Shown here one piece after another: positions 3,016-47,539 of a DNA stretch of 64,000 bases. Position numbers and translations under genes: made by a program. The DNA comes from Eledone cirrhosa. Its lineage: Eukaryota. The notes under the pieces were generated by a model. That model was not told the origin of the DNA, searched no databases, and was given only the letters and a program-made list of their open reading frames with translations. Every line of letters starts with the position of its first letter. Positions within the stretch are counted from its first letter, which is position 1. The DNA lies in NCBI GenBank assembly GCA_964016885.1, contig OZ024747.1:36022001-36086000 (forward strand), given 5' to 3'.

Positions 3016-3018
<3 letters not shown>
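2362..3018 (-). mobile_element. Non-autonomous RTE-type retroelement fragment with (TGA)n tail and internal ~113 bp tandem duplication
   Basis: (CAT)n at 2362-2388; ggatgcccttcctaacaccaacc motif, similar to RTE-derived repeats, occurs twice (~2473-2585 and ~2586-2703). Confidence 0.5.
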
Positions 3019-3082
<64 letters not shown>

Positions 3083-3088
<6 letters not shown>

Positions 3089-3268
3089 ATACTTGGGTCA
3101 TATTTGTGTAATATTGCCAGAATTAATAACAGAACACACTCACTGTTTGGTTGGTTTTCGCTTCTCGCTGTCTTTTATATCTGCGATCTAACTTAATCGG
3201 TCCTCAATGTTGCCATTGACTGACCGACGGTCATATAAAAAACCTCGCTAAACTTATTCATCGCCTCT
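3083..3268. mobile_element. Miniature bipartite insertion of the 13391-16178 PLE family: inverted 3' UTR piece plus tail
   Basis: 3083-3232 matches ~13433-13596; 3233-3255 is the reverse complement of the tail at 13391-13411; (TA)n on both sides. Confidence 0.75.
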
Positions 3269-3294
3269 ATATATATATATATATATATATATAT

Positions 3295-3756
<462 letters not shown>

Positions 3757-5180: not shown

Positions 5181-5232
<52 letters not shown>

Positions 5233-6205
5233 GTGAGGTTTTTTTTACAAAATGAAAAATAACCGAGGTGTCCTACACGAGTGGAAGTATAAAGAAAAAG
5301 GGATGAAATCGAAAGTGCAACTGAAGTCTTATTTTTTTTTTAAATATATATATTTATTTGGTTCCTTTACCGGTTTCGCAGTTCTTCTGCTTTTCAAAAG
5401 GTGAGTTGAGATGGAGGGTCTGTGGTTTTTCTCACATCTGGTTGGTCTCTAAATGTTACTTGTTTTATATGGAAAAACTGGCTCGAAAACCAGGTTTTTC
5501 GAGAAGTAATTTGATTGGTTTGTCAATAATTATAATAAATTTCGCGCCAGTTCGCGTTACAATAGTTCTTCAAATAAGAGAAGGGGGGGGGGGGGGTTGT
5601 CACAGGTTGTTTTTTCATATATGAGTGTTTGAATTTCTTTTTACTTGAAAAAATGAGGCTCATGAAGGCTTTTTTTTGGTTGGTTATAAATGAAATTTGG
5701 CTGTCACGTGAACAAGTTTTCATTACATTTTTGCGCCCTTATTTGGAAAACTATTCTGTAGTCTATAGTGAATGTTATGACAATGGAGAGATAGTGGTCA
5801 AGGGAAAAGGGATTGGGAGAAATGTTCTGGTTCAGTGAATATGGCCAGCTGTCAGAGTTCAGGTGTCAGAGTTCAGATTTTCTATTGAGACTGAAGATAT
5901 GTGTTTATTTGTGTGCTTGTGTGTGTGTATATGTGTGTGTGTGTATGTGTGTATTGGAAGATGATTCTATTAGTAGAGATGGGGGAGGGAGTTGTGTGTG
6001 TGTGTATATGGGTGTTATGTGTGTGTGTGCGAGTATGTTAGATAGAGAGAATATATATTTTTTTTTGTGTGTGTGTATATATATATGTGTGTAGGAAAGT
6101 GGTTCTATTAGTAGAAATGGGGAGGGTGTTGTAGGTGTGGGGGTTTTTATGTGTGTGTATGGGTGTTATGTGTGTGGGAGTATGGTTAGCATGTTAAGAT
6201 GAAGA

Positions 6206-6240
<35 letters not shown>

Positions 6241-6496
6241 GTGTGTGTATGTGTGTGTGTAGGAAAATGATTCCTTTAGTAGGAATATTTTTGAATGAAC
6301 ATATTTTCCTGACTTTTTCGTGTTTGCTGTTGTATTGCCAGTGCAAACGTATGTTTAAGGTTTATTTAGTTCGGGTTTTTATTTTCTAAAGTAGGTGTTA
6401 TGTGTGTGTGTGTATGTCATATTGTGGTGTTGACATAATGTATATTAAACCTTATTTAATGTTGGTCTATATTTTTGAATAAACATATTTTCCTTA

Positions 6497-7724
6497 TTAT
6501 TTCGATGGCAATACTTACAAGCAAATATCGGGGACTGCGATGGGCACAAAAGCCGCTCCAACTTATGCCAACTTAGTCATGGCATACTTAGAAGTCCAGA
6601 TATATGAACAGTCCAAATCAAAATACGGATTGAACTTCCACAAATATTTATCAGAGAATTGGAAACGCTACTTGGATGATTGCCTCATTCTTTGGTCCCA
6701 CACACTCGACCAACTGAAGGATTTCAAAAACTTAATAAACGGCATCAATAACCACATCCAATTCACAATGGAATACAGCCAAGATCAACTCCCATTTCTG
6801 GACATCTTAATCACAAAAAAAGACACATATATCGAAACTGACATACACTACAAACCAACAGATTCCAAACAATATCTGCTATTCACCTCCAACCATCCAA
6901 AGCACACGAAGACGAACATTCCTTTTAACCTAGCAAGAAGAATTTGCACAATTGTCTCCAATTATGAAACGCGAAATAATAGACTTCAAGAATTAAAGGA
7001 AATTCTACTTGAGAGAGAGTACCCACTATTACTAATAAATAATGGAATAGAAAGGGCTAAAGCAATAGGCATTGATGAATTACGGAAACAGAAACAAATT
7101 CAAGGTACGTCCAATATTCTATCATATATCTCAACACACAACCCAAGAAATGCGGAAGCTTACAACACTATTCACAATAACATCCCACTACTAAAACAAA
7201 ACCCAAGAATGGAAAAAGCCCTTGAAACACACAAAATAATCAAAAGCAAAAGACAACCAAAATCACTGAAAACATTACTCACCAATGCCAAATTACCTAC
7301 CACAAACCCACAACCAAGTATCAAAAAATGTGGTCGCTCTAATTGTGGAACCTGCACTCACCTCATTGAAGGCAACACGTATACATTTAAATCAGGACAA
7401 AATTTTACTGTAAAAAATCACTTCACTTGCTCATCAAAAAATCTAATTTATGCCATTAAATGTAAAGGATGCAATGAAGATTATATAGGACAAACTAAAC
7501 TCACACTCAGAAACAGAATGACAGTTCATCGCCAACAATTACGAGATCCAACCACGAGACAAATACCACTAAGTGCACATCTAGACATTTGCGCAAGTAA
7601 TAAGACACCCAAATTCCAAGTCTTCCCATTTTACCTTTGCGCTAACAATACAACAGAACAAATGCGAATAAATAAGGAAAATATGTTTATTCAAAAATAT
7701 AGACCAACATTAAATAAGGTTTAA
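6497..7724 (+). CDS. PLE reverse transcriptase (C-terminal half) plus GIY-YIG endonuclease, 5'-truncated
   Basis: KQISGTAMGTKAAPTYANL, WKRYLDD, LPFLDI, HYKPTD..QYLLFTSNHP, CGRSNCGTC linker, NLIYAIKCKGCNEDYIGQT, RMTVHR, RINKENMFIQKYRPTLN. Confidence 0.92.
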
Positions 7725-8759
7725 TATACATTATGTCAACACCACAATATGACATACACACACACACATAACACCTACTTTAGAAAATAAAAACCCGAAC
7801 TAAATAAACCTTAAACATACGTTTGCACTGGCAATACAACAGCAAACACGAAAAAGTCAGGAAAATATGTTCATTCAAAAATATTCCTACTAAAGGAATC
7901 ATTTTCCTACACACACACATACACACACACAATATATATATATATATATATATATTCTCTTCATCTTAACATGCTAACCATACTCCCACACACATAACAC
8001 CCATACACACACATAAAAACCCCCACACCTACAACACCCTCCCCATTTCTACTAATAGAACCACTTTCCTACACACATATATATATACACACACACAAAA
8101 AAAAATATATATTCTCTCTATCTAACATACTCGCACACACACACATAACACCCATATACACACACACACAACTCCCTCCCCCATCTCTACTAATAGAATC
8201 ATCTTCCAATACACACATACACACACACACACATATACACACACACAAGCACACAAATAAACACATATCTTCAGTCTCAATAGAAAATCTGAACTCTGAC
8301 ACCTGAACTCTGACAGCTGGCCATATTCACTGAACCAGAACATTTCTCCCAATCCCTTTTCCCTTGACCACTATCTCTCCATTGTCATAACATTCACTAT
8401 AGACTACAGAATAGTTTTCCAAATAAGGGCGCAAAAATGTAATGAAAACTTGTTCACGTGACAGCCAAATTTTATTTATAACCAACCCAAAAAAAGCCTT
8501 CGTGAGCCTCATTTTTTCAAGTAAAAAGAAATTCAAACACTCATATATGAAAAAACAACCTGTGACAACCCCCCCCCCCTCTCTTATTTGAAGAACTATT
8601 GTAACGCGAACTGGCGCGAAATTTATTATAATTATTGACAAACCAATCAAATTACTTCTCGAAAAACCTGGTTTTCGAGCCAGTTTTTCCATATAAAACA
8701 AGTAACATTTAGAGACCAACCAGATGTGAGAAAAACCACAGACCCTCCATCTCAACTCA

Positions 8760-8797
8760 CCTTTTGAAAAGCAGAAGAACTGCGAAACCGGTAAAGG
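8760..8797 (+). ncRNA. Hammerhead-like motif with variant TTGAAAA core (mirror 5364-5401)
   Basis: cctt-TTGAAAA-gcag-aagaa-ctgc-GAAA-ccgg-TA-aagg in the PLE 3' UTR. Confidence 0.65.
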
Positions 8798-8867
8798 AAC
8801 CAAATAAATATATATATTTAAAAAAAAAAATAAGACTTCAGTTGCATTTTCGATTCCATCCCTTTTT

Positions 8868-9009
<142 letters not shown>

Positions 9010-9334: not shown

Positions 9335-12160
9335 CTATAGCACCTCTTTGTAGACGATATTGCGTGTCACCCCTTGAGAGGTGTAAGCAAAAAGTGCATT
9401 CCTGCTCTGTACGTGGGAACAGGCAACATAAAGTTGACCATGGGAGAAGTATGGCTCCCCCAAATGTATGCCCGCCACCGACAATGTTTGCCCTTGTGAC
9501 TTGTTAATGGACATGTCAAAACATGGTCTCATCGGGAATTGGGATCGCGGGAAATCGAACGGGATGTCTGACGCCAAGGGGAAAATGTTCATCCTTGGAA
9601 TGAAAACATTCTCCCCTCTCCCGCACCCCGTTACAATGGTGGACTCAATCAAGTCGGGCGTCATTGACTTGACGACGATGCGAGTACCGTTGCACTGCTT
9701 TGGTGGGCGTATGTTCCTTATTAGCATAATGAGACAGCCAACCCTAAGCTTAATAAAATGAGGTGGGAGCCCTGGAGGCTCAAGGGAATTTAATAACTCA
9801 ACCGGATAATTAACGATATCGTCATGGTCTAAGGTCCGGTCGATAGATTTGAAGATGTGCTCTTTATCGGGAATTTTCTCAATCAGTTGCTCGTTAATAA
9901 AATTAACCATGTCATTTTTCGGAGCAAGTATGGCACTTTCGCTGAACCAATCGAAGTTTTTAAAGCTAGATGAGACATTAGGAAAAACTGCTTCCCAAAG
10001 GTCAGAAGGGCTGTTCACAATGTTGCACAGGGAGTCGATTGTAATGCCGCCCTTGTCATCCGCATAGACCTTGCCCTCACCAAGTGCTAAAATGTTCTAG
10101 CAAATGCTGCAGACATGTTGTCACCATGCAGATGAGCACGCATATTTGTGCTCAGGTACAAAGTCTTCACCTGGGGCCACAACGTGGACGATTAAGGCAG
10201 GCACGCACTTCATCAGATTTTGTCCCTTTGGGGATGACAGGCAGCGTATGCCGAACATCCCCTGAGAGCAGAAGGGTTACGCCACCCATAGGAGCCGTAG
10301 ACTCCCTAATGTCTTTCCGGGCCCAGTCCAATGCCTCAAGGGCACCCTTGTGTGCCATTGTAAACTAATCCCAAACAATGAGACAACATGTTTTGAGAAC
10401 CAGAGCTTCGTGTGAGCTCTTGATGATATTGCATGTTGGTGTCTCAGTTTTTATTAAATCCATGAGGAGTTTAAGGGTTGAATGTGCTGTCCTGCCTCTC
10501 GGCAGCAAAGTAGCCGCCATCCCGGGCGATGCAACGGCCAACGCAATTTTTTTGTCCTGACGAATCTTAGCGGGAATCAATTTTGTTACAAAAGTTTTTC
10601 CGGTACCCTCAGGTGCATCGAGAAAGAAAATACCGCCAGTCTGATTTTGAACCGCGTCAATGATAGTTTGGTCCGACAGATGTTTGTGGTCATTATCTTC
10701 TAAGTATTGGGAAAGAGATTCGATGTCATATGCTGTTTCCCGCAACAAATCCGGGGCCAACAACACGCGACGGTTGACGGCAAACCACACGTCGCCAAGT
10801 CACTCCCACACATGTCGAGGAGGCCGTCCCCGATATCAATGAGTGACCTGTTGTATATAATGCCGCTGTAAGCAACTTCCATTGAAGGATACTGCAGATG
10901 GACCAGGCGCTGGAAATCCTCAGACATGAAGTCTCTGTACTTGACCCATAAAGATTTGGGATCACCCAATTCACACTTTTGAAGCAAAATGGCAAAGTGT
11001 TCCCGTAGACCTTTAGGTGATTTCAACAAAGCACCCTCTGCTAAAGTGGAATCCCATTGCGAATCATCTTTCGAAAGACCACGCTTAAAGCAGGCTTTCC
11101 GGTACGTATCACATATTTCTCCATCAACAGTTTTGAGGTCCTAAAATCTTTGTGGGCCTACAACTTCATGCAGAAGAAAGCGGAGATGAAAGCACTCATG
11201 CTGACTTGGGGGCACAGTGTAAACCCTTCCAAGATAGCTGTCAAATTTTACACCAGGATGTCTTTCAACAGCCTGACCTGACTTTCTTCACACCCAAGTG
11301 TTTTTCGACCATATAAAGTCGGATGGAACCTGGGTGTACACAATTGTTTGCGCAAATATATCGAACTGGCAAAGTTTGAAGAAACCTGTCAAAGTGGTCT
11401 CTGTCGGATCGGCGGGCAGCTTGGCGGTGGTTTGGTCCGTAAAGTAAACCTTTGCCCATTTTCCAAATGTATCACAAGCTGTACGATGGCGAGGTGCCGT
11501 TGGTGTAGGGGGAAACCAAATAGTCGCCAAAAAGCTTCATTGCTACTGATGTACCGCCCCGCCATGTATTGTGTGACCTCATCAGAGCCCTTATTTACAT
11601 ATTTGCATATGTATTTTATAGACTTGACGGAGTTGCAAAACTCAACGTTGATGTGGGCGTTGAACATCTTCAAGAGAAGTGGGCAGTAAGGGACCACCCA
11701 TCTATTGTCGACTTGGCCTCCCTTTACCGTTGTGGGGAAGCCACCGCTCTCGAGCCGTCTTCGTCTGTACAGGAGGTACCCATCGCCACCAGTCTGAGTC
11801 TCGTCAATAAATGTATGTTTTGGGGTATCCCTTACTGCACGGCCCCCCTTTCAGATACGTGTGATGCCCATTAGGACCCGACGCACTCGGACCATGTTAG
11901 CTTTGACGATGTCATGTAATTCCTGGTCAGTTGCTCGGTTACGGATTTCAGCCGAAATGAAGCTGTCTATGGCATTTGAATTGATTTTATCAGCTAACCA
12001 AATCAAAATGTGAGCATGTGGCAGCCCTCGTTTTTGCCATTCGACGTTGAACATGTCACATTTTACAGCCCCAAATACCTGACATTTTTTATTAAAGCCA
12101 TGAGTTTAGCCAGTTTCAGTCTGAACACTCTGGCAATGAGGTCATGTCTGTTCGAATAAT
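9335..12160 (-). pseudogene. Fragmented Helitron RepHel coding region
   Basis: ORF pieces 11851-12054, 11389-11697, 11288-11530, 10700-11029, 10365-10790, 10167-10358 and 9335-10018 are colinear RepHel segments. Confidence 0.88.
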
Positions 12161-12630: not shown

Positions 12631-13651
12631 TCGTTATTGTTACGTTTGTTGTTTTATAAATTCATCTGTTGCTTTTGAATATTTGTTATTTGATGTAAAA
12701 TGTAAATGTGTAAAATGTAACGTAGACAGAGCAGTATGTATTTAGTGATTTTTAAATTTTGATATTTGATGTATGAGTGTCGTTATAACTATAGAGAGGG
12801 AGACAATCTATTGTAGAGAGAGGGAAGAGCGACGGAGAGAGTAAAGCTATGGTTGTTGTGTTGCTTAGGTTTCAATGTTTGTGTCGCGTTCCTTCTAAAG
12901 AAGTTTTCTCGTTGTTCTAAATTGTAATGTTGATAGGGTAGTAGACGGAGGCAGTAACCTTTTAATGAGAGATGCAGAGGAGATTGAGGGGGGAGAGTAG
13001 TGAGAGTGATTAACCTTTAAAGAGAGTTGCAGAGGGGATTAAGAGTGGAGTAGAGGAAAATATGAACATTTTAGAGAGAGTTTCAACATGTATGTAGTTT
13101 CATATATTTTTGATGGTAGTAGTGAGAGGAATGAAGCGTGTAAAGAGAGGGTTGCAGCATGTATTTAGTTTTATCTATTTTTTTTTCATAGAAGCAGGAC
13201 ATTTCTGTCAAAAATAATTCCGTGTTGACCTGCCCAGTTAAATTTAGGGTGAAGGTAGCAAGAGGAATTCTTTTCCAAGTAAATTGGAAAAGAATTCATC
13301 AAAATCGGTTGAGAAATGTGGAAATGCATAAAAAATCATACACACACACAGACAGACATCTACCGTTTATATATATATATATATATATAGTTTTGCGAGG
13401 TTTTTTATATGAAATCGTGTGTCGAAACAGATATTGTTATATTTGGGGAGGGTCATATTTGCGTAATATTGCCAGAATTAATAACAGAACACACTCACTG
13501 TTTGGTTGGTTTTCGCTTCTCGCTGTCTTTTATATATATATATCTGCGATCTAACTTACTCGGTCCTCAATGTTGCCATTTACTGACCGGCGGTCAAAAA
13601 TAATACAGATACAATATAGACAAACACATATATATATAGTTTACATAATTT

Positions 13652-13692
13652 ACATAAATCTTTCGTTGCACATCTGCAACATCGTCAGTGGT
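13652..13692 (-). ncRNA. Minimal hammerhead in PLE 3' UTR
   Basis: cca-CTGACGA-t-gttgca-gatg-tgcaac-GAAA-gatt-TA-tgt; stem I is weak. Confidence 0.6.
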
Positions 13693-13972
13693 GTTATATT
13701 CATTGTTCCTCCTGTTGTGTTGTATGTCTACGCCATTTTTTTTTTTTTTTTGTTCAGTCTGTCTATATATTTATTTATTTATTTGCTTGTTTGTTTATCT
13801 TATTTTATTTTGTCTTCTTTGCGCATGCGTTTGCGTGTGTGTATAGTGTTATGTGTGATGTGTGACTAGTGTGTATAGTGTTGTGTCTGCTGGGTGACTA
13901 GTGTGTGTTTATGTGCTTGTGTATGTATTTATTTATCTTATTTTATTTATTTTATTTAATTTACTTATTTAT

Positions 13973-15933
13973 TTATACTTCTCTTAGGTCAGTGTTGTTT
14001 GTTTGGGTGTTGTTGTTGTTCCACTCATTCTTTCTGTTTAGCTTTGGTCTTCTAATTTCTATTTCACTGGCCTCTCTGATTTGCCTATCTGCTGGGTCAT
14101 TCCTATGTTTAGATATTATTCTAATTTCTATGTTGTCTATGTTACCGTCATGTTGTTGTCTAGCATGTTCGTATAGTACTGACCCGTTTTTTTGTCCTTT
14201 TAGTTCCCCCCAGTGTTGGTCTATCCTTTCACCTATGCTACGAGCTGTCTCACCTATGTATGTTGTTGTCGTGTTTCTGCAAGTACCCTCTGTACATCTT
14301 ATGCTATAGACTACGTTTCTAGTTTTACAGTTTATCCGGGGGTTCACCTTACATATGATACATTTCCTATTGGTACAGTGGGTTTTCTTAAAAGGGTAGG
14401 TTTTGCTGATCAGGGATTTTATGGTGGTTCCTGGCTTTTCTACCACCTTTATTTTTAAGTGGGTCTTTCTCAGGGCCTTTCTACACTGGTTAGCTAATTT
14501 CCCTCCAGGGGTGGCGTCCACAAACATGACACTCTGATATCTCTGGTTGTCGTACCATGATGTGGCCTTCCCTATCTTATGTCTAGCCCTATCTAAGCTA
14601 TTCCATGATTTGCTCCTGTATAGTGGGCAAATTCCTTTCATGTCCAGTTCTATGAGGGTCTTATACTTTTCCATGGCTCCTTCGTATACTCTGACTCTGT
14701 CTCTTTGGTTGTAGCCAGAGAACTGCATGCGGTTGATGAAGTGTTGGATGTGTCCTTCCATTTCTGTTGGGTCGCACATGCTGGACACATTCTTCATCAC
14801 TCGTACCAAATCTGCGATCAGAATATTAAACTTAGCACTACTGGACATTGCTGAGTTTTTGAGTATCAGGTATTTGGAGGCCATGGGTTTAGCATAGTGT
14901 GAGTGGAGAATTTGGGCTCTCTCGTCTATAGTGTTAATCCAGAGTTCTGTGTCTAATACAGGTAGTCTATTGTTAGGGTGTTTGGAAGGGAAGTCTATAG
15001 TTACAGTTATACTCTGGTGTATGGAATTAGCTATCTGCTGGATGCTTTCCATCGTGCTACGTTCTAAACCAAACTTGTTAGTGCTCTCTAGTGGGGGTGT
15101 TCTTATAACTATATTGATATCGTCTACATAACGAGAGTACATGATGAGGTCTATGGAGCTTTCATTAAGGAGGAGATCTTTAAGTCTCCTTTCCCACCAT
15201 ACCATGAAAAGGTTGGCAACATCACCAGCTATGCTGACGCCGATGGCTGCTCCCTCATTTTGGGTGTAGATTTTCTCATTGAACTTAAATATGTGGCCCT
15301 TTAGGGTAGTTTTGATACTAGCCCCTATTGCATGTGCGACCATTTTTCTTACCTGATCAGTGTTTTGGGGGGTCCGTATAGCTTTGGTCCACCCAATCCA
15401 CCTTCCTATGGGAGTCTTTTTAGCCATTGAGGTTATGGTGGGGGGTCTACCTCTTATAGGTCTACTAGGGCAGAAACATCTAAGGTCATGGCTGTCTAGG
15501 TAGTCAGTGTCGTAGGTAAGTCTAAGTAGTAGGCCCAGTTCGTCTGTGTCGACGTCGCAGAACTCCACCTCACTCTCAATGATCATCTCCACACATCTTT
15601 TCACAGCAAAATCAATGTTAATGGATGGGTACAGTGACACCACATCCATGCTGCCTATTATGCAGTTGGATAGGCTCCTGTTTTTGTTGCACTCACTGAT
15701 TCTGCTGAGGAGGTCCTCTGTACTTTCACATACATCTGGGGACATCTTGATTATGGGGCGTATAACCATTGAGAGGAAGTAGGAGATCCTGTAGTTGCTA
15801 GCTATATTAGCTCCGCATACGGGTCTTGTTGGTGGTCCTGTTGTCGGGTCGTCGACTGTCTTGTGGTCTTTGCGGAGCCCGTACAAGGGTGGTATGCCAT
15901 TGTTAGACGCCTGGAAGTTGTTGGCAGTGCGTC
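13973..15933 (-). CDS. PLE reverse transcriptase plus GIY-YIG endonuclease (open frame, 5'-truncated)
   Basis: LYGLRKDHK, TRPV, SMDVVSLYPSI, QNEGAAIG, YSRYVDD, LPVLDTELW, CTNRKCIIC, NVVYSIRC...YIGETARSIGERIDQH, RQIREA...LNRKNEW; the first ~36 aa of the track ORF come from the inverted arm. Confidence 0.92.
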
Positions 15934-16173
15934 TGCAGATGTGCAACGAAAGATTTATGTAAATTATGTAAACTATATATATATGTGTTTGTCTATATTG
16001 TATCTGTATTATTTTTGACCGCCGGTCAGTCAATGGCAACATTGAGGACCGAGTAAGTTAGATCGCAGATATATATATATAAAAGACAGCGAGAAGCGAA
16101 AACCAACCAAACAGTGAGTGTGTTCTGTTATTAATTCTGGCAATATTACGCAAATATGACCCTCCCCAAATAT

Positions 16174-16233
<60 letters not shown>

Positions 16234-16870: not shown

Positions 16871-18463
16871 TTTCTCAAGGTACGTGGACGATATCCTCAT
16901 CCTCACATCTTCCTAAGACACGGCGAACAGAATCTATGAGACGTTCAACAACACGGACGAGAACATTGACTTCAGTGTTGAACACCCCAACGAAGACGGG
17001 TCACTTGCCCTCCTCGACTTCCGAATCAACATCACGGAACAGGGAAGGATCCACTGCAACTTCTACCGAAAGGCACCTGTTCGTTCACTACAAGTCCGCC
17101 CTCCCTAACAGTGCCAAAAGAGGATACATCACGAACGAGATCGCGCGAATCAAAAACAGATGCAGCGATCCCGCGAGTGGTGTCACTCATACCAAGCGTT
17201 TCCTGGAGGTGCTGGAGACGAACGGGTACCCTACCTCGATCACAGACAGAATAGGAGACACCAGACACAAGAGAGAGAGAGAGGCACCCAAGGCAAGTGC
17301 TTCCTTAAAATTCCACATCTGGGCGAGAATACCACCAAAGCTATCCGCAAGGCTATACGGAGGGAGGGCCTCCACATCCACCTGGCCCACTCGGGCCCCT
17401 CCCGGCGAAGATGCCTCTCCAAGAAACCCGGGAAATCTACTGACGCATGCTCCCTCAGAGACTGCCTGATACGCCATGCGAACTGTTGCCTACGCACATA
17501 CGTCGTGTATAAGATAGAATGTGACAGGTGCAACCAATACTACATAGGTAGCACAATCCGACCTTTGCACATCTGGATCAAGGAACACACTAAAACCAGG
17601 GCCTCGTCTTTCCGGAAACACATAGACAAATGCGGAAACAAAGACGGAAGGCCCATTGTCACAATTCTAGCGACTGAAAGAAACGTCGGCACGTTACGTA
17701 TCAAGGAAGCACTTTTTATCAAACGCCTGCAACCGCAAATAAACAACCGATTAGAGAGAAGCGAAATGAGATGGCTGGTTTAAGTTAACAAACGATGTAG
17801 CAACACACAACACACGCACACACGCACACACAAACGAGACAACTAGACACACACACACACACAGTAGCATTCCACCATACGAACATACTACACTGCCAAT
17901 ACAGAGGAACAAGGCAACTACACACGCACACACACACACACTCAAGCGAACAACAACACACGCACACACACACAGTAACATTTAACAAACAGGCAGAGAA
18001 TGGACTGACAGCTAGCGCCACCCCAATCCCTCATTCGGCCGCTGACCTCTGCTCGACCGACCCCATTTCACGCGCACGCGCGCTCTGCCGAATACCTCAG
18101 ATATTCAAAACAACAAACAGCGGAGGACGCGTTTCGCAACTGTCCGACAGACAACCATTACCCCGGAAAAAAAAAACCCAGTTGATGGATGTGAATCCGA
18201 AATATATAGGGACTATTAAATCTCTCCCAAGGTAACTCTCTCTTGTGTTGTTATTTTTATTTTATCCTTTATACTCTTCCCTTCTTTCTTCTACACATTT
18301 ACACATCTTTACACACCACGCATCTCAACGTACACCCACTTACATCTCTCTCTCCACCACCGGATCTTGTTACCCGGAGATTTACCATTTGCATTGTCGA
18401 GGCTTCCAAACGACTTAAAGATATTTATTTATTATTCCACAATGCTTCAAGCAAACTTCAATA

Positions 18464-18470
<7 letters not shown>
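16871..18470 (+). mobile_element. 5'-truncated, frameshifted Penelope-like element
   Basis: SRYVDDILIL at the start, LFVHYKSALP, VVYKIECDRCNQYYIGSTIRPLH, LRIKEALFIKRLQPQIN; 3' UTR ends in (TA)n; decayed HHR ~18176-18212 (cc-CAGTTGA-t-ggat-gtga-atcc-GAAA-tata-TA-gg). Confidence 0.85.
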
Positions 18471-21567: not shown

Positions 21568-22313
21568 TAATTAAGTTAAAGTGTACATCTACATATGTAT
21601 ACGGAAGTACTAGTATGCATATAAATACACACATGTATACATATTTACATGTACCGAGTTTTTCACTAGACACTTTACAGTGAGTGTCCAGCTAGTCTGT
21701 ATGTAAACAAACAGACGAACCGGGTTTTAAAGTCATACGAGTTTTCAAGGAAACACACTTCCTCTATTCTCCAGAGAGCCAGACAGGAATATTGGACTAG
21801 TTTCGATGTTATTACATCTCATCAGCAATATATACCCATCTTGTTTTTATCGTTTCCGCTGAACCGGTGCGCACAATGACTTACGTTCTATGCAAATTAG
21901 TCTGCCCACTACTGATTTTCATAGAAAAAGCATATAACGATATGTGCTTTTACAATTCTGCAGATAAGCCGGAAGATGGGTTATTATTGCTGATGAGATG
22001 TAATAACATCGAAACTAGTCCAATATTCCTGTCTGGCTCTCTGGAGAATAGAGGAAGTGTGTTTCCTTGAAAACTCGTATGACTTTAAAACCCGGGTCAT
22101 CTGTTTGTTTACATACAGACTAGCTGGACACTCACTGTAAAGTGTCTAGTGAAAAACTCGGTACATGTACATATGTATACATGTGTGTATTTATATGCAT
22201 ACTAGTACTTCCGTATACATATGTAGATGTACACTTTAACTTAATTGTTTAAGCGTCAGTCATACAAAAGTGAGTTAGAAGCGAAACGAAATTTAATTTC
22301 GTTTCGTTATTTG

Positions 22314-23188: not shown

Positions 23189-23259
23189 AGACACACACAG
23201 AAACAAAATGGCGTAGGACAGAAGAAAGGAAAGGCACAGAAACAAAGAAAGGAATCCCC

Positions 23260-23304
23260 AGTCACTGAAGAGGTCACAGAGTGTGTGACGAAAGTACTAT
23301 GACT
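23260..23304 (+). ncRNA. Canonical minimal hammerhead in a solo PLE 3' end (23190-23467)
   Basis: agtca-CTGAAGA-g-gtcaca-gagtg-tgtgac-GAAA-gtac-TA-tgact; element ends cccaaagtataac(TA)n like 3650. Confidence 0.88.
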
Positions 23305-23461
23305 ATATATAAACTACTATCTGGTTGTGGAACCAACCAACCAACCAGAAATTTATAAATTTGTAGATTTGTAACTTTATAAATTTATAAATATATAATA
23401 AATTGAAGTGAAAGCAACTGGTGCGTGTGTTTCTTATTGGCAACATGACCGTCCCAAAGTA

Positions 23462-23558
<97 letters not shown>

Positions 23559-25594: not shown

Positions 25595-25794
25595 NNNNNN
25601 NNNNNNNNNNNNNNNNNNNNNNNNNNNNNNNNNNNNNNNNNNNNNNNNNNNNNNNNNNNNNNNNNNNNNNNNNNNNNNNNNNNNNNNNNNNNNNNNNNNN
25701 NNNNNNNNNNNNNNNNNNNNNNNNNNNNNNNNNNNNNNNNNNNNNNNNNNNNNNNNNNNNNNNNNNNNNNNNNNNNNNNNNNNNNNNNNNNNNN
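25595..25794. other. Assembly gap (200 N)
   Basis: Run of n. Confidence 0.99.
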
Positions 25795-33519: not shown

Positions 33520-34002
33520 GTTAAAAGAATAGAGGTGTAACACACAAGTTATTATATATTGGTAAACGGAATAGAAAATGCTGACAAATTGTTCACAGTT
33601 GAAAAATGGTTTAATTAGGAATAAAAGAGTATTAGTGATTGTATGGGTTAGTATTCAGTTGTGGTTTTAAGTTTTTAAGTTTTTACCGGTTGCGCATTTC
33701 TAAATGCTTTTCAAAAATAATTTTGAGATAGAGTGTCCGTGGTGTTTGCTCTGATCAGAGCAAAAATAATTTTGAGATAGAGTGTCCGTGCTGTTTGCTC
33801 AGATCAGAGCAAACAGCACGGACACTCTATCTCGAAATTATTTTTGAAAAGCATTTAGAAATGCGCAACAGGTAAAAACTTAAAAACTTAAAACCACAAC
33901 TGAATACTAACCCATACAATCGCTAATACTCTTTTCTCTTTTATTCCTAATCAAACCATTTTTCAACTGTGAACAATTTGTCAGCATTTTCTATTCCGTT
34001 TA

Positions 34003-34008
<6 letters not shown>
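33520..34008. mobile_element. Palindromic insertion with TTGAAAA-type HHR (~33840-33878)
   Basis: Arms ~33553-33800 and ~33806-34008; ttt-TTGAAAA-gcattt-ag-aaatgc-GCAA-c(c/a)gg-TA-aaaa; ~49 bp tandem duplication near the centre; left tail 33520-33552. Confidence 0.8.
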
Positions 34009-34068
<60 letters not shown>

Positions 34069-34072
34069 TGAG

Positions 34073-34119
34073 ATTCTACAGGACTAGAACTGTTTCATTC
34101 TTTAGAAATCATCAGGAAT
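34073..34119 (-). ncRNA. Canonical hammerhead as a ~55 bp solo insert in (TA)n; related decayed copy at ~53925-53970 (+)
   Basis: attc-CTGATGA-t-ttct-aa-agaa-t-GAAA-cag-ttctagtc-ctg-TA-gaat. Confidence 0.8.
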
Positions 34120-34129
34120 ATATATATAT

Positions 34130-34825
34130 AATTATGATTCGTGCTCTGAAATAGCGATGTATACATGAATACATGTATACATGAAATGTATGTATTTGGC
34201 AATATACCGTATGTTTAATTAAAAATATTTTGAAGAGCTTGCCCTATCATTTTAAAGTAGTGATTCCGTCACTTACTTTGTTCTCTGGCAAAGGAAGGGA
34301 GACGAGCGGACAGATTCTGTTCACACTGTTGGTGTCGCTCACAGCAACGTACTACCTGGAAACAGAATCTGTCAGCTTCTCTCCCTTCCTTTGCTGAAAA
34401 ACGAAGTAAGTGACTTAGTCACTACATTAAAATTATGGCTCAAGATCTTCAACATATTTTTAAGTAAGCATACTGTATATTGCCAAATATACTATACATA
34501 CATTCATGTATACATCGCTATTTCAGAGCACCAATCCTAATCTTTAATTTTTGCTGGACCGGCAACCGATCTCTATAATTATTCCTGATTATTACTGGAA
34601 TTTTATAAGAATCCAGCCTCTATAATTTTCGCCAGAAGCAGGATGTACGTTGCTCTGAGGAACACCAACAGTGTGAAACAGAATCTGTCAGCTTCTCTCC
34701 CTTCCTTTGCCGAAAAAAGAAGTAAGTGAAATAGTAACTACTTTAAAATGATAGCGCAAGGTCTTCAAAATGATTTTTATTAAACAAGCGGTATATTGCC
34801 AAATATACTATACATACATTCATAT
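34130..34825. mobile_element. Retrozyme-like ~317 nt HHR unit: about 1.5 tandem copies (+) plus one inverted partial copy
   Basis: aacagaatctgtcagcttctctccc at ~34361 and ~34677; ~34130-34355 inverted; HHR 34652-34692 gct-CTGAGGA-acac-caaca-gtgt-GAAA-cag-aat-ctg-TC-agc. Confidence 0.78.
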
Positions 34826-34834: not shown

Positions 34835-36045
34835 TCCAAAATTAAATTAGGGGTGTCATGTCCGAGAGACATGCGCCATATCCACTGTAGAATATTCTCA
34901 AAGATTCAAATGAATAGATCTCAAAGATTCAAATGAATAGATCCGAGCCGTTTATATCAACTAGAAATTGATTGACATATATATTAAAAATAAACATATG
35001 AAACAATCACAGGGACGAATTTGTAAAGTGTGTAAGCACACACAGTTACGTAGGTAACTAATTAAAGTTTAACTATAACTTTAAATACAGATACCTTTTA
35101 AAATCAATAATCTTCATTAAAGAAATATATTTCACCATAAATCGATCAGTAAATCGCAGTAGTCAAATCTCGGATTTTAAACAAGGGAGAAGATTTAACT
35201 ATCTGTGTTTACACAGCAAATGCAAATCTGCGAATGACTAGTAGCACGTGTTGCATCTTTTTAAAAATACACACATCATACCAGAGTTATCTCAGTGGCG
35301 TGAATAGGATGATTGACAAATAGAAATAGCAGCCGAGTCCTTTCAACTGAGTTAGCTCTACAATTAAGGGGCCGTATATATATATATATATATCCAAAAT
35401 TAAATTAAGGGTGACATGTCCGAGAGACATGCACCATATCCACTGTAGAATATGCTCAAAGATTCCAATGAATAGATCCAAGCATTTTATATCAACTAGA
35501 AGTTGATTGACACATATATGTATATCTAAAATAAACATATGAAACAATCACAGGGAATAACTTGTAAAGTGTGTAAACACACAAAGCTAGGTAGGTAACT
35601 AATTAAAGTTTAACTAGAGCACTTTAATATAAAGATACCTTTTAAAATGATTAATCTTCCTCATATATATTTCATTAAAGAAACATCAATCGATCGGTAA
35701 ATCACAGTAGTCAAATACGGATTTTCAACATAGGAGAAGATTTCAATATCAGTGTTTACACAGCAAATGCAAACACAGATAGTTAAATCTTCTCCCTTGT
35801 TAAAAATCCGAGAATTGACTACTGTGATTTACCGATCGATTGATGGTGAAATATATTTCTTTAATGAAATATATATAAGGAAGATTAATCATTTTAAAAG
35901 GTATCTACATCTAAAGGTCTAGTTTAACTGTAATTAGTTATCTACCTAACTGTGTGTACTTACACACATTACACATTTTCCCCTGTCATAGTTCCATGTG
36001 TTTATTTTATATTTAGATATATGTCAATCAATTTCCAGATGATAT
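34835..36045. repeat. ~558 bp tandem unit (2 copies) followed by an inverted partial copy
   Basis: ~34835-35230 matches ~35393-35772; ~35772-36040 is the reverse complement; bounded by (TA)n; no clear HHR. Confidence 0.75.
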
Positions 36046-37032: not shown

Positions 37033-37151
<119 letters not shown>

Positions 37152-38312
37152 GATAAATCTACCAAGAGTTTACGGTAGTGTCCAATCCGTATGAAGAACT
37201 CAATGTATTCCGGATATCATGGAAAGAAGAGATGTAATGAAAATCCACTTTCGGTGAAAGATAAACGGTATACAGAGTCAAGATAAAATATTAAGCAAAT
37301 AATGAATAAACAATTCCTTATATTAAACAAAAAAAGTTCATTATTTAACGATCGTTTCTAGGGTATATATGTGTTATAATTGGTATGCATATTCAACAGA
37401 TCTATGTACAAAATTATACAAAATTATACAAATTATCAAGATTAAATATACATACCTAACACATATATACGCCGTCTTCAGAAATAATGAAGTATATTTA
37501 TTGATAATAACAACAATTCAAAATATCAGTTCAAAATTGACCAATGAAAACACAAAGGGTCAAAAGCAGTTCGGTGTGTGTATATACATGTAAAATCCTT
37601 ACACATATTTTACAATAATGTGTGTATAATTTGTATGCGCATACTAAAAAGATGGATGCAAACACAAAATTTCAAGGTTAATATCTCTGTAAGCTTAATG
37701 CGCTGATAAGATGCGCATTGATACTTATGGAGTCAAGCATATAAATATATTTTTTCATACTCACACATATCAGTATAATCACACATACATGCGCGTATAT
37801 GCATAAATATACACATAACCACGAACATACAAACACACACACACACCCCCACTCACATTTATATATGTGGATATAAAATCATAAGCACATAGAAATTAAG
37901 TCACTCACATAAAACACTGGCACACACATTTCAAGATCAAGATACGGAAATTAGGTGGGAGGGGGGGGAGGGGTCAGTATTCAATTGTCTGAGCAGACTG
38001 CCTAATATAAATGTATCTATAAATTAAGAAAAATAAAAAAATAAAAACAATAAAATATAATAAATAGAATATAATGTACATACACATACAGATATATATA
38101 CACATACATACATGTACGCGCACATAGAGATATTTACGCATACACACATACACACATACATATACAGTCATATACACACATACACTTACACGAACATACA
38201 CATACACATATAAAAAGATATATATATACACACACACACGCGCAACACATACACACATACACATATATATAAAAAATAGATAATAAAGATATATATCCAT
38301 ATATATATATAT

Positions 38313-38363
<51 letters not shown>

Positions 38364-38454
38364 CATATACACATACATACACATACATCTAAATATACAT
38401 ACACATACATACACACATACATGTACATACATGTACATACATATACGCACATCG

Positions 38455-38502
<48 letters not shown>

Positions 38503-38826
38503 TCACATAGACATAAAGATACATACACACACAACTTACATACACACGTATATATATATATATATAGATGTACCTTCATACATAGAATTAGATATATAAT
38601 CATACATACATATGCACCTACTTATACTCATATAAATAAATACATACGCTTCCATATATGTGTATATACATAAAAAACAATACAACCTCACCAAACTCAG
38701 ACATACAAATGAAAATAATAATAAAAAGGCATATGTATATACATACACACACGCATTAATAGAGATATATATATATATATACACACACACATACACATAT
38801 ATATATACATACACACACACATATAT

Positions 38827-38874
<48 letters not shown>

Positions 38875-38887
38875 GCACACACATAGA

Positions 38888-38924
<37 letters not shown>

Positions 38925-39265
38925 ATATATATCCACACACTCATACCACCATAAATACACATACAAACACCCACATGTATATATATATATATATATATAT
39001 ATATTTCATTACTCTTATATATACACATATTATATATACATACACAACCTCACTTATACACATATACACATAAGTTATATTACAATAATAATAAAGAATA
39101 ATATACATATATATATATACATATACATATATATATATATATATATATACATACATACATACACATACATACATACACATAAATATATACATACATAAAT
39201 ACACACATACGAATAAAGACATATATTCACACATAGACACCTATATATATATATATATATATATC

Positions 39266-39316
<51 letters not shown>

Positions 39317-40459
39317 ACACACACACACACAGACACACATACACACTCACATATATATATATATATATATATGTGTATGTGAGTGTGCGCACATACACAT
39401 ATATACACACACACATACAAACACACACAAACACATACATATGCATACGTGCACACACACACACATATATCACATAGATACGAAGATAAACATATAAATA
39501 GAGAGACATACATATATATACACAACACACATACACATACATACATACACGCATATACATATACATACATATATACACGTATATATATTCCTATATATAC
39601 AAGCATACACATACATACACATATATACACATACATACACATATACATACAACACATTCACATACACATACATATATAATACATATATATACATATATAT
39701 ACATACATATGTATGTACAATCATATATACACACACAATCTTACATTCATATTTGCATGCTCATATATGTATTTTTATATTTAGATATAAATACCCAAAC
39801 CTATATAGACACCTACCTACATATATATTCATACATAGACGCTTACAAATACAGATGATAATAGTATGGGGGAAAGGGGGGGTTTGGAGAAGGGGATCAA
39901 AGTAAATATATGTTTCAAGAAACATATAATATTTTCCGTATCTTAATTCAATGTATGTTCTTACATATTTTCAGTGCTAGGAAATACGAAATCTATGCAT
40001 CTCAAAATAAATAAGTATACCATTAATCATATGTTAACTAAACCAAAGATAGTCAACATATTGATTTCTAAGGTGTAAATTAGTTAGGTTTATAATATTT
40101 GAAGCAGAATTTTGAAGTCAAACAGTAGTAGATTATTAATTACATTATAACTAAATTAAAGTTAATAACGTTATGGTATCAATATTAGGAGATGAATTTA
40201 GTAATAGGGAAAAGAAACCCAAATAAAAATAAAATAAAATATTACATCGGTAGTAACATATAAATTATATGTTAACTAAATTAAAAATTATATATTTATT
40301 TCAATAGTATACGTTAATTAGTATATGTTAATTAGGTATACAATACATAAAGCAGATATTGTATTTCATCAATAGCATAATATAATTATATGCAAATAGA
40401 AATCAAAATTAATACGCATACATATACATATACATATACATACACATATACATACATAT

Positions 40460-40502
<43 letters not shown>

Positions 40503-41030
40503 TATATACACACATATACATACATACAGATACACATACACAACACACACATATACATATACATATACATATACATATCTTTTTCAAAAAATTGCACAGA
40601 ATATATTAGGTATATATCCAAAACACATCCCATTCTATGATTACATGACATTCTGCAATTCGTCTGTATAAGGATACTAATTTTAAGCAAATTAAAATAA
40701 AAGTTTTAGGTTGATTAAAACTAAAACCAAATAATAAATATATTTCCAAAATGTATATTAATTAGGTCTATAATACTAAAAATTCTTTCTCCGTCATTGG
40801 ATACATGATATTATTTTGTTATATTTTATCTGTAAAAGAATTATAATAAAAGGTTTAAATAAATTAAAATTAATCTATAAATTAAATTACTAAGTATATA
40901 TTAGTAATATTTAAAGGTTTTTCACAATTTATGATTACATAATATTTTCTCATCTGTAATAAAATATTAATTAAATTAAATTTATAGGTTAACTAACATT
41001 TAAATTAAATTAATTTCTAGAATAATGTTA

Positions 41031-43009
41031 TTAATTAGGTTTATAATATTTAAATGTTTTTTTTAATTTATGATTACACGATATAATTAATTCCTGTCGT
41101 TTATTTAATAAGATATCCTTAGACTTCATTATTTCAAATAGTTCTTGGGAACATAATCTACATTCCTTTCTATTATTTTGATAAGGGGTGGCTCTTTTGA
41201 GCACACTCCAGGTCAAATCATATTTTATATTCTTATTTTTATAACTATTGATTTTTTCTGCTAGAGATGTTGTATTAGCCAGTGCGGCATTTTTAAAACT
41301 ATGTTTGTGGGTATTAAACCTTGTCTTAAAATTGTTAGAGGTAGCTCCTATATATGAGCAAATAGAATCTTTAGTTTTAACATTACATTTATAGACTATG
41401 TTGTTAACAAGACAATTCCCTTTTAATGGGCAGTTTGTTTTGTTTCTACAGTTACATCCTTTCGTTAATTCTGTATTTGAGGAGATATTATTGTTAATTT
41501 GATGTACTGGTGGTATACTTATGGTTTTCTTACATTTATATGCATTATATGCACTTATATTTTGTTTTATGTTATTTGTTGTAGAGTATGAGAATTTAAC
41601 TGTAGACCTATTTAAGATTTGATGGTATTTGTGGTTTGGCGGGAAGTTTTTCTCAAGGATATAAAAAAATTTTTTAGCAATATTATCCTTAACTTGTAAA
41701 TTAAAAGGAGCATTATACCAAGTAACTCGTCTATTACGGTTTCTATGTTGTTTATTATTTTTATTATTTTTATAGGTTGTATCATGATTTTTACTAGGAG
41801 GATTAATGTTAATGATCTCACCACAACTATTTTTAGTTATATTTGTAGATTTAGGTGTTTTATCTTTTTTATTAGGAGTTTTATTATTAATATTTATTAT
41901 AGTTGTATGATGAGTAGTTTTTTGAGGGTTACTATACTTTATATTAGAAGATTTAGTATTTTGGGGTATATTGTGGGTGGCATTTAGGTATGTACTTTTC
42001 ATTTGGTGTTTGTTGGTAATATTATGCTGTATGCTTTCAGTATTTTTAGTAGAAGGTATATACTCTAATCTATTTTTGTGGCCACTTCTATCTAGAGCTT
42101 CATTATAAAAGGTCGCATTTTTATCAAATACATCTTGGTTAGAAGAAAGGTTAGAAATTCTAAGTGATATATTATATGCAAGGTTTTTAAGGATAGATTT
42201 AGGGTGATTAGATTGTGAGTGTATGTAATGTAAGTTTTGGTTAGGTTTATGGTAAGGTTGGTATATACCCGTAGCTAAATCTAAAGTTATATCTAGGAAA
42301 TTTACTACTTTACTTGTTTTTTCAAAAGTAATATTAAGATTATAATAGTCTTTAAGGAAAGTTCTAATATGTTTTTTGTTTCTTTCGATTTCTGAAAGGC
42401 TAAGGTTGTTAGAAAGAAGAAGACAGTCATCACGATATAAACCACCTTTGAGGTGGGGAAAAGAGGCATTTATGTTGAAAAGGAGAAAGAGGCCCACAAG
42501 ATCAGTAATTTGGGCGGAATCGCTTGAACCCATAGTAATATCAAAAAGATTACTGTATGTGTTTCTGGTCCAGTATTCATTCTGAAATTCAATAAGTGTT
42601 AGTCTAGCATGTGTAATAATGTTAATGTCATCCGAAGTTAAATTAGATCTATTTTTAGCAAATATTAATGCTTTGTTCAGGAGTATGGGTGATATAGAAG
42701 AATAGTAATTATCTATATCAAATTGTAGGAAAGAAGCAGAAGATTTACACCTAATATTTTTAAACCAATTAATTACCTGGGAGGTGTTTTCCCAGAGTGG
42801 TAAAATAACGTATTTTCTTATTTGTGGGATGACTCTATCTAAAATTTTTTTGCTAATTATTCCAATATCTGATTTGGAGGGACATATAAGTCTAATAGAA
42901 GGATTAGAGTTAAAGTTAGATTTGTGATCTTTCAGGTTGAAGTGTGGTCTTTTCAATGCCAAAGGTTCAGTTCTATCTTCAATGTTTAGTTTTTTTACTA
43001 TGTTGTGTG
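41031..43009 (-). CDS. PLE RT plus GIY-YIG endonuclease, open frame, 5'-truncated
   Basis: NLKDHKSNF, RLICPSKSDIG, QFDIDNYYSSI, TMGSSDSAQITDLVG, GGLYRDD, VNFLDITLDL, YIHSQSNHP, N/K/T-rich insert, WYNAPF, CNCRNKTNCPLKGNCL, IVYKC...YIGATSNNFKTRFNTH, CRLCSQE. Confidence 0.92.
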
Positions 43010-43158
43010 AGAAAGAAGAAGACAGTCATCACGATATAAACCACCTTTGAGGTGGGGAAAAGAGGCATTTATGTTGAAAAGGAGAAAAAGGCCCACAAGA
43101 TCAGTAATTTGGGCGGAATCGCTTGAACCCATAGTAATATCAAAAAGATTACTGTATG

Positions 43159-44692
43159 AAACACATACAGTAATCTTTTTGATATTACTATGGGTTCAAG
43201 CGATTCCGCCCAAATTACTGATCTTGTGGGCCTTTTTCTCCTTTTCAACATAAATGCCTCTTTTCCCCACCTCAAAGGTGGTTTATATCGTGATGACTGT
43301 CTTCTTCTTTCTAACAACCTTAGCCTTTCAGAAATCGAAAGAAACAAAAAACATATTAGAACTTTCCTTAAAGACTATTATAATCTTAATATTACTTTTG
43401 AAAAAACAAGTAAAGTAGTAAATTTCCTAGATATAACTTTAGATTTAGCTACGGGTATATACCAACCTTACCATAAACCTAACCAAAACTTACATTACAT
43501 ACACTCACAATCTAATCACCCTAAATCTATCCTTAAAAACCTTGCATATAATATATCACTTAGAATTTCTAACCTTTCTTCTAACCAAGATGTATTTGAT
43601 AAAAATGCGACCTTTTATAATGAAGCTCTAGATAGAAGTGGCCACAAAAATAGATTAGAGTATATACCTTCTACTAAAAATACTGAAAGCATACAGCATA
43701 ATATTACCAACAAACACCAAATGAAAAGTACATACCTAAATGCCACCCACAATATACCCCAAAATACTAAATCTTCTAATATAAAGTATAGTAACCCTCA
43801 AAAAACTACTCATCATACAACTATAATAAATATTAATAATAAAACTCCTAATAAAAAAGATAAAACACCTAAATCTACAAATATAACTAAAAATAGTTGT
43901 GGTGAGATCATTAACATTAATCCTCCTAGTAAAAATCATGATACAACCTATAAAAATAATAAAAATAATAAACAACATAGAAACCGTAATAGACGAGTTA
44001 CTTGGTATAATGCTCCTTTTAATTTACAAGTTAAGGATAATATTGCTAAAAAATTTTTTTATATCCTTGAGAAAAACTTCCCGCCAAACCACAAATACCA
44101 TCAAATCTTAAATAGGTCTACAGTTAAATTCTCATACTCTACAACAAATAACATAAAACAAAATATAAGTGCATATAATGCATATAAATGTAAGAAAACC
44201 ATAAGTATACCACCAGTACATCAAATTAACAATAATATCTCCTCAAATACAGAATTAACGAAAGGATGTAACTGTAGAAACAAAACAAACTGCCCATTAA
44301 AAGGGAATTGTCTTGTTAACAACATAGTCTATAAATGTAATGTTAAAACTAAAGATTCTATTTGCTCATATATAGGAGCTACCTCTAACAATTTTAAGAC
44401 AAGGTTTAATACCCACAAACATAGTTTTAAAAATGCCGCACTGGCTAATACAACATCTCTAGCAGAAAAAATCAATAGTTATAAAAATAAGAATATAAAA
44501 TATGATTTGACCTGGAGTGTGCTCAAAAGAGCCACCCCTTATCAAAATAATAGAAAGGAATGTAGATTATGTTCCCAAGAACTATTTGAAATAATGAAGT
44601 CTAAGGATATCTTATTAAATAAACGACAGGAATTAATTATATCGTGTAATCATAAATTAAAAAAAACATTTAAATATTATAAACCTAATTAA
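43159..44692 (+). CDS. Mirror PLE RT C-terminal half plus GIY-YIG
   Basis: Track protein matches the last 500 aa of 41031-42962. Confidence 0.92.
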
Positions 44693-45220
44693 TAACATTA
44701 TTCTAGAAATTAATTTAATTTAAATGTTAGTTAACCTATAAATTTAATTTAATTAATATTTTATTACAGATGAGAAAATATTATGTAATCATAAATTGTG
44801 AAAAACCTTTAAATATTACTAATATATACTTAGTAATTTAATTTATAGATTAATTTTAATTTATTTAAACCTTTTATTATAATTCTTTTACAGATAAAAT
44901 ATAACAAAATAATATCATGTATCCAATGACGGAGAAAGAATTTTTAGTATTATAGACCTAATTAATATACATTTTGGAAATATATTTATTATTTGGTTTT
45001 AGTTTTAATCAACCTAAAACTTTTATTTTAATTTGCTTAAAATTAGTATCCTTATACAGACGAATTGCAGAATGTCATGTAATCATAGAATGGGATGTGT
45101 TTTGGATATATACCTAATATATTCTGTGCAATTTTTTGAAAAAGATATGTATATGTATATGTATATGTATATGTGTGTGTTGTGTATGTGTATCTGTATG
45201 TATGTATATGTGTGTATATA

Positions 45221-45261
<41 letters not shown>

Positions 45262-46408: not shown

Positions 46409-46459
<51 letters not shown>

Positions 46460-46893
46460 GATATATATATATATATATATATAGGTGTCTATGTGTGAAT
46501 ATATGTCTTTATTCGTATGTGTGTATTTATGTATGTATATATTTATGTGTATGTATGTATGTGTATGTATGTATGTATATATATATATATATATATATGT
46601 ATATGTATATATATATATGTATATTATTCTTTATTATTATTGTAATATAACTTATGTGTATATGTGTATAAGTGAGGTTGTGTATGTATATATAATATGT
46701 GTATATATAAGAGTAATGAAATATATATATATATATATATGTGCATGTCTGTTTTTTATGTGTGTGTATATATATATATGTATGTATGTATATATATATA
46801 TGTATACGTGTGTGTGTATATGTATATATATATATATATACATGTGGGTGTTTGTATGTGTATTTATGGTGGTATGAGTGTGTGGATATATAT

Positions 46894-46928
<35 letters not shown>

Positions 46929-46941
46929 TCTATGTGTGTGC

Positions 46942-47007
<66 letters not shown>

Positions 47008-47331
47008 ATATATGTGTGTGTGTATGTATATATATATGTGTATGTGTGTGTGTATATATATATATATATCTCTATTAATGCGTGTGTGTATGTATATACA
47101 TATGCCTTTTCATTATTATTTTCATTTGTATGTCTGAGTTTGGTGAGGTTGTATTGTTTTTTATGTATATACACATATATGGAAGCGTATGTATTTATTT
47201 ATATGAGTATAAGTAGGTGCATATGTATGTATGATTATATATCTAATTCTATGTATGAAGGTACATCTATATATATATATATATACGTGTGTATGTAAGT
47301 TGTGTGTGTATGTATCTTTATGTCTATGTGA

Positions 47332-47381
<50 letters not shown>

Positions 47382-47472: not shown

Positions 47473-47539
<67 letters not shown>

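Follow-up and report, generated by a model that had tools for sequence, protein, structure and literature searches.

An inverted PLE insertion with non-overlapping arms and its bearing on priming from one or two RNAs

A PLE remnant inverted without duplication

Within the window (the whole 64-kb stretch of Eledone cirrhosa DNA analyzed here, which is AT-rich, with a GC content of 32%, and crowded with (TA)n-flanked repeats), we identified an inverted remnant of a Penelope-like element (PLE), a retrotransposon, comprising 183 nt of unique sequence (3085–3267) between a left (TA)n target tract at 3018–3084, the terminal ATAT of which is common to the PLE internal end site, and a right tract at 3268–3294. 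The locus is a real feature with standard PLE anatomy, in which the tail-side arm is cut below the length of the tail; it has no evident function. We regard it as a short variant of known PLE anatomy, the mechanism of which is testable and unproven: priming of both target ends is probable, and twin priming on a single RNA is our tentative choice among the more specific readings.

The left part (3085–3233) is an inverted arm composed of PLE 3′ UTR, which begins at the internal start site and reaches the counterpart of position 13596 in the reference copy of the family (13390–16177), with the element sense on the minus strand and the cDNA on the top strand. From 3081/3085 to 3233, its alignment to 13431–13596 (+/+ orientation) has 5 substitutions and 2 gaps; that to the inverted arm near 16016–16177, taken as its reverse complement, has 4 substitutions and 2 gaps. 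Since it aligns to both arms of the 13390 element, the left part is 3′ UTR in antisense orientation, running inward from the internal site. The right part has the opposite orientation: 3231–3254, on the plus strand, corresponds to the tail from 13412 to 13389 (23/24 identity, score 44) and starts 18 nt downstream of the internal site. A chance match as the source of this arm was rejected, because its score was never attained by 100 shuffles against the whole window on both strands (best score 30), nor by 2000 shuffles against 13385–13700. The right arm totals 37 nt, 24 of which match the 13390 copy. The 13-nt extension on the plus strand (3255–3267) is absent from that copy and has an end position like that of the sister family at 3295; compared with the longer tail of the latter, it is equal in length and matches weakly in sequence (score 30, equal to the shuffle maximum), so that we consider it likely to be more distal tail.

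The arms meet at a 3-nt microhomology, TCA (3231–3233), present in both source segments; an overlap of at least 3 nt is expected at 6.7% of random joints between these segments. TCA is the sole overlap between the arms and 18 nt of the element (13413–13430) are missing from both, so the rearrangement is an inversion without duplication, and both ends of the 13390–16177 element, the tail end and the internal site, are represented. The sequence-only reading had described such an inversion at 3083–3268, with 3′ UTR running inward from the internal site on the left and distal tail on the right. Its structure and its account of the left part are borne out, with the exact unique sequence being 3085–3267, whereas the tail assignment is firm for 3231–3254 and only likely for 3255–3267, the match of which is insignificant alone.

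Parent element and classification

The reference copy consists of a tail-primed long arm on the minus strand (13390–15933), which includes the tail (13390–13430), the internal site (13431–13434), the 3′ UTR and an ORF, and of a 244-nt inverted arm on the plus strand (15934–16177), which is identical to its partner at 243 of 244 positions and terminates within (TA)n at the internal site. With a tail of approximately 41–45 nt, this is an inverted 5′-truncated copy tailed at one end, as is characteristic of EN+ PLEs. The 5′-truncated ORF (13973–15933, minus strand; 652 aa) appears to encode an RT with a C-terminal GIY-YIG-type endonuclease, in line with the same group. In the Pfam scan, RVT_1 scored below the cutoff (E = 1.4e-4) and GIY-YIG had no match in this ORF by itself; BLASTP against a GIY-YIG-bearing ORF of the window yielded E = 8e-7 for the RT and 3e-4 for the EN region, and the top atlas match scored 0.97, with 40% and 28% of the cluster members carrying RVT_1 and GIY-YIG, respectively. 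RTs of PLEs are not known to carry RNase H, and no RNase H family matched the 652 aa in the same scan, which barely detects the RT of this truncated ORF. By eye, the translation displays C-X4-C-X2-C, two Cys inside the GIY-YIG core and His residues downstream, which would agree with the CX2-5CxxC linker before GIY-YIG and the CCHH motif described for Neptune and Nematis (PMC8557442) and thus suggests a PLE of the Neptune/Nematis type.

Folding of the 3′ end of the family revealed no significant structure (z −1.46; 18 of 200 shuffles were equally good), and the PDB search returned a single, non-significant match. Canonical PLE clades carry a hammerhead ribozyme in the pLTR; no hammerhead was matched over 3085–3267 or 13390–16177 among the 150 listed of 165 Rfam matches. 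Elsewhere in the window, weak Hammerhead_HH9 matches at 21772–21844 and 21972–22042 (34.4 and 28.4 bits, against a gathering score of 52) sit in both arms of a tailed palindrome, and hammerhead-like cores were seen by eye near 21300 and in a 51-nt insert at 34067–34117. ORF pieces at 9335–11850 resemble what we take to be fragments of a Helitron helicase/Rep, and 25595–25794 is an assembly gap of 200 N.

Sister family, tails and internal sites

The locus adjoins a sister-family insertion (3295–3650) with a tail of approximately 58 nt, a near-perfect palindrome (148/146 nt, 2-nt spacer) and an identical internal site; despite this neighbor with the same sites, both arms of the locus belong to the 13390 family. 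Tails in the two families measure 41–57 nt, and the tail end varies among the related copies at 13390, 3267 and 3295 (about +41, +55 and +57 from the internal site), which suggests more than two start sites. In unrelated families, the tail meets the arm at ATAT, TATA or TTTA, each of which briefly matches the (TA)n target; this was seen at the outer arm ends of 3355, 4103, 4461, 5292, 13435, 16270, 33560 and 62041. A three-way comparison within the sister family, noisy owing to AT-rich misalignment, found 19 sites that pair the two arms, and 6 and 11 that pair one arm with the third copy. A single-ended sister-family copy (23189–23465) ends at the internal site, has neither tail nor inverted arm and starts 16 nt before a conserved AAAATGGCG motif, presumably a promoter, which recurs at 13739 (minus strand), 4423 and 56518. 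Visual inspection of 3295 and 21020 gave no support to the idea that symmetric centers are fixed at a promoter or a ribozyme cut.

Two-armed inserts in the window

The census of the window comprised 23 two-armed inserts: 21 with overlapping arms, the palindrome at 37149–48566 and the locus itself; it pools several families, and many inserts are tied to PLEs by anatomy alone. The arms overlap in 22 of the 23, by at least 41 nt each and in one case by approximately 5.4 kb, the exception being 3085–3267. Non-overlap of the arms, which defines L1 twin priming, is therefore not a family-wide rule here, though the census is biased toward overlap because a tail-only arm can be recognized only with the help of a second family copy. 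Both forms occur, with the longer arm on the tail side (13390) or on the internal side (5227–8870 and the locus). One tailed insert, 57437–57829, which has no ORF link, carries a 41-nt arm on the internal-site, that is, unblocked, side; part of its tail resembles 50725–50773. Of 18 internal-side arms, this one alone measures at most 55 nt (1 of 18; wide interval, 0.1–27%), from which plain truncation predicts approximately 0.9 tail-only arms among 17 inserts. Short cDNAs thus form without a block, and blocking by a second primer is unnecessary. Single-ended copies are also present (23189–23465 and 16877–18470).

Near-symmetric arms are in excess: in a test pooling unrelated families, the spacer is at most 30 nt in 9 of 21 inserts, compared with 2.4 expected from random pairing of arm lengths (p ~1e-4). 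When the test is restricted to inserts both ends of which lie on (TA)n, 4 of 13 have such spacers (p = 0.028) and 2 of 13 have spacers of at most 12 nt (p = 0.11). The palindrome at 37149–48566, because of its three-part center, and the extra arms of 34131–34821 and 34836–36041 were excluded. The excess speaks against truncation that is fully independent in the two arms. Run-off of two cDNAs at the same RNA end fits it, and self-priming or fold-back fits it equally well. Palindromes with arms of 150–290 nt persist with spacers of 2–30 nt, some at 86–93% arm identity, and spacer size grows with arm identity (rho +0.52, p = 0.018, n = 20), which indicates that asymmetry has not accumulated with age.

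The tailed palindrome at 37149–48566 (11.4 kb; arms 99.9% identical over 1973 nt) has an ORF whose CxCX5C linker is of the kind reported for the Hydra PLE clade, and a three-part center that includes a 153-nt fold-back hairpin at 43006–43316; the palindrome centers at 33520–34005 and 61936–63405 bear short templated duplications like that at 43006. At 48604–49129, a (TA)n-flanked insert combines a left part resembling the tail end of the 37149 family with a right part resembling the family at 57530–57739; the parts overlap by approximately 14–19 similar nt, suggesting a possible two-template chimera or a deletion between neighbors.

Public sequencing runs

Half or more of the words of the family were found in 8 of the 15 listed public runs. 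Reads of four public runs were aligned to 13390–13735, with runs X3–X5, which had small shares, set aside; in this alignment, tail-only arms would probably escape detection as joints because of their shortness, and the 3231–3233 junction is absent among the 15 of 25 joints listed, with 602 loose ends lying outside the listing. A single strand-changing joint appears among the same 15, namely 13441/13602 in run X6 (one contig, shorter side 47 nt); an entry for run X13, 13437/13407, is of unstated kind. The X6 joint, most simply, represents a tail arm that passes the internal site by approximately 8 nt and is joined 6 nt away from where the left arm of the locus stops. It is either a second near-abutting event, which would support stalling at the first primer, or the locus itself in a longer allelic form, and its orientation is ambiguous; run X6 may come from a species other than that of the window.

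At six sites (13442, 13462, 13590, 13623, 13625 and 13629), the letter present in both arms of the 13390 element is the one in the minority in X6, the alternative letter accounting for 59–85% of the summed depth, which does not equal copy number. The arms differ from each other only at 13581, where one of them has a private letter. The expectation of the sequence-only reading that paired arms share variants is thus upheld for this element. Such sharing is also compatible with two transcripts of one source, fold-back or conversion, and a search for unshared variants is therefore a weak way of refuting a single RNA. In metagenome contigs, an exact 25-nt pattern of the family had 0 matches, and none of the 99 pattern matches obtained with a protein query in the metagenome search was confirmed.

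Comparison with known systems

The formation of tandem and inverted PLE insertions has been described as still undefined (PMC8557442). EN+ PLEs are known as inverted 5′-truncated copies with a tail of 30–40 nt, the tail being ascribed to endonuclease resolution and the palindromes to self-priming (PMC8557442, PMC3846280). The window families resemble them in the (TA)n target, the head-to-head inverted arms, the tail at one end and, for the parent element, an ORF that apparently encodes an RT with a C-terminal GIY-YIG-type domain, and differ in the tail length (41–57 nt); at the locus, in addition, the arm that carries the tail falls short of tail length, which leaves no inverted repeat. In vitro, the PLE protein of Poseidon from Anolis carolinensis cuts and extends both target strands, initiates reverse transcription at two sites, one at either boundary of the tail, and has a predicted dimeric form, with later integration steps left unvalidated in that study (PMC11167929). 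These properties and the AT-rich target parallel the window family. In contrast, the Poseidon start sites are described as non-homologous to the target, whereas the internal site in the window shares ATAT/TATA with the (TA)n flank; the clade differs, no fold was supported in the window family (z −1.46), and the main text of the Poseidon study determines neither an inverted product nor the number of templates (PMC11167929).

The original twin-priming model for L1 is reportedly that of Ostertag and Kazazian. The locus shares with published L1 inversions two inverted fragments, a small internal deletion, microhomology at the junction and a very short non-inverted part (PMC2837659): its 18-nt gap involves no duplication, TCA lies at the junction and ATAT is shared with the flank. 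An L1-made pseudogene likewise has coordinates that leave a 12-nt gap (bioRxiv 10.1101/2024.12.14.628481). L1 differs in combining poly(A) with a random internal site and in having non-overlapping arms, whereas the PLEs have two fixed sites and overlap in 22 of 23 inserts; moreover, target-site duplications are unreadable in the (TA)n target of PLEs. For L1 loci with tail-only non-inverted parts, twin priming (one RNA) and dual priming (two RNAs) were found indistinguishable (PMC2837659), and hence a single PLE copy cannot decide between one RNA and two. Across the literature searched (mostly non-subscription and exclusive of the 2005–2006 PLE reviews), we found no proposal of twin priming on one RNA for PLEs; passages of bioRxiv 10.64898/2026.07.22.740005 contain nothing relevant.

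Models of formation

Each arm is antisense to the RNA when read from its own (TA)n flank and is, therefore, best taken as first-strand cDNA extended from a break end. Together with the activity of the Poseidon protein on both target strands (PMC11167929), this polarity makes it probable that both target ends were primed, in two RT events on one or two RNAs. The sequence-only reading had gone further and placed both on the same RNA: priming from both ends stands, and the sameness of the RNA is compatible with the locus and undiagnostic.

Twin priming on one RNA during primary PLE integration is the reading that we favor, tentatively and at less than even confidence; the locus would then have formed as follows. 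The endonuclease would cut both strands in the (TA)n tract, as the flanks and the published activity suggest; one 3′ end would pair by ATAT with the internal start site and be extended by approximately 150 nt, while the other would prime at the tail end, some 55 nt further 3′. The tail-primed cDNA would halt at a length of 37 nt, with 18 nt remaining to the first primer, and the two cDNA 3′ ends would anneal at TCA/TGA, followed by fill-in. The anatomy, polarity, gap, microhomology and origin of both arms from a single family are direct observations, and the gap and polarity match L1 twin priming, with its two inverted fragments and internal deletion.

The weakest step of the twin-priming reading is the placement of both cDNAs on one RNA molecule. 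In its favor are the in vitro properties of the Poseidon protein, the joint in run X6 (13441/13602) if it is a second near-abutting junction, the near-symmetric arm excess, which run-off of both cDNAs at a single RNA end would predict, and the six minority letters shared by the 13390 arms, together with the derivation of both locus arms from that family. Against it stand the lack of a pile-up at the internal site, with 22 of 23 inserts overlapping by at least 41 nt, the 41-nt arm on the internal, unblockable side, and the existence of single-ended copies. Furthermore, the symmetry excess suits fold-back equally, fold-back is visible at another junction (43006–43316), a 3-nt overlap is weak evidence (6.7% by chance), and the X6 joint, ambiguous in orientation, could be a longer allele of the locus.

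The formation of the longer palindromes by strand displacement, as also proposed from the sequence, is a further step that we consider doubtful; it fits the near-symmetric arm excess, and its published rival is self-priming (PMC3846280). It is similarly doubtful whether all PLE inverted-repeat shapes arise from one reaction, in which a dimeric enzyme would act on a single RNA with two programmed sites 40–57 nt apart. A stall of the rear RT would then leave tail-only arms, displacement would produce overlapping arms, and both RTs running off one broken RNA end would yield near-perfect palindromes. Of the mechanisms considered here, no other single primary one would cover all four arm classes of the window.

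Dual priming, which we judge possible but somewhat unlikely, invokes two templates, each priming one target end, so that the short tail-primed cDNA would be an ordinary extreme 5′ truncation; the templates would be separate transcripts from one source or, within a single tandem transcript, its upstream and downstream pLTR copies. It needs neither blocking nor displacement, and it is favored by the existence of ~40-nt arms on the unblocked side and by the wide overlap in most inserts. The start of the single-ended copy at 23189–23465, if the nearby motif is indeed a promoter, suggests priming in the upstream pLTR, and 48604–49129 may join arms of two families. The predicted dimer and the in vitro starts at the pLTR-ORF junction also suit two templates (PMC11167929), and dual priming produces the same architecture in L1 (PMC2837659). 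Nevertheless, independent truncation fails to predict either the near-symmetric arm excess or a second junction near the internal site, as in run X6; the derivation of paired arms from the same subfamily rules out only random source pairing.

Palindromes are unstable and prone to loss of their centers. The locus could be a secondary product, in which an overlapping palindrome or a near-abutting junction later lost its center between two TCA repeats, a route that we regard as unlikely. The TCA microhomology suits deletion as well as cDNA joining, many Penelope copies are disabled by microhomology deletions (PMC3846280), and arithmetically, a 38-nt TCA-to-TCA loss from the X6 joint (13602/13441), were that an older allele, gives the exact junction of the locus. 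The abundance of the family, however, makes the X6 joint likelier a random junction than an ortholog. The persistence of palindromes with 150–290-nt arms and 2–30-nt spacers likewise speaks against later loss, as does the rise of spacer size with arm identity, which would still allow deletion right after insertion.

Fold-back of one cDNA, two unrelated side-by-side insertions or an assembly chimera are together very improbable. Self-priming is the published reading of palindromes at inverted PLE junctions (PMC3846280), and 43006–43316, which holds a 153-nt duplicate of 42407–42559 forming a hairpin with a 5-nt loop, is most simply read as two cDNAs plus one fold-back; yet fold-back duplicates sequence already in the cDNA, and at the locus neither arm contains the other. 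Unrelated insertions conflict with the lack of a TA tract between the arms and with their membership in one family, and a 3-nt overlap is probably not how assemblers join repeats.

Implications

The copy at 3085–3267 illustrates the question of one RNA or two without answering it. Tail-only arms constitute the insertion class that separates one-RNA from two-RNA models in bulk, and computational analysis could resolve the matter in a genome as rich in tailed PLE palindromes as this one (23 inserts examined in 64 kb).
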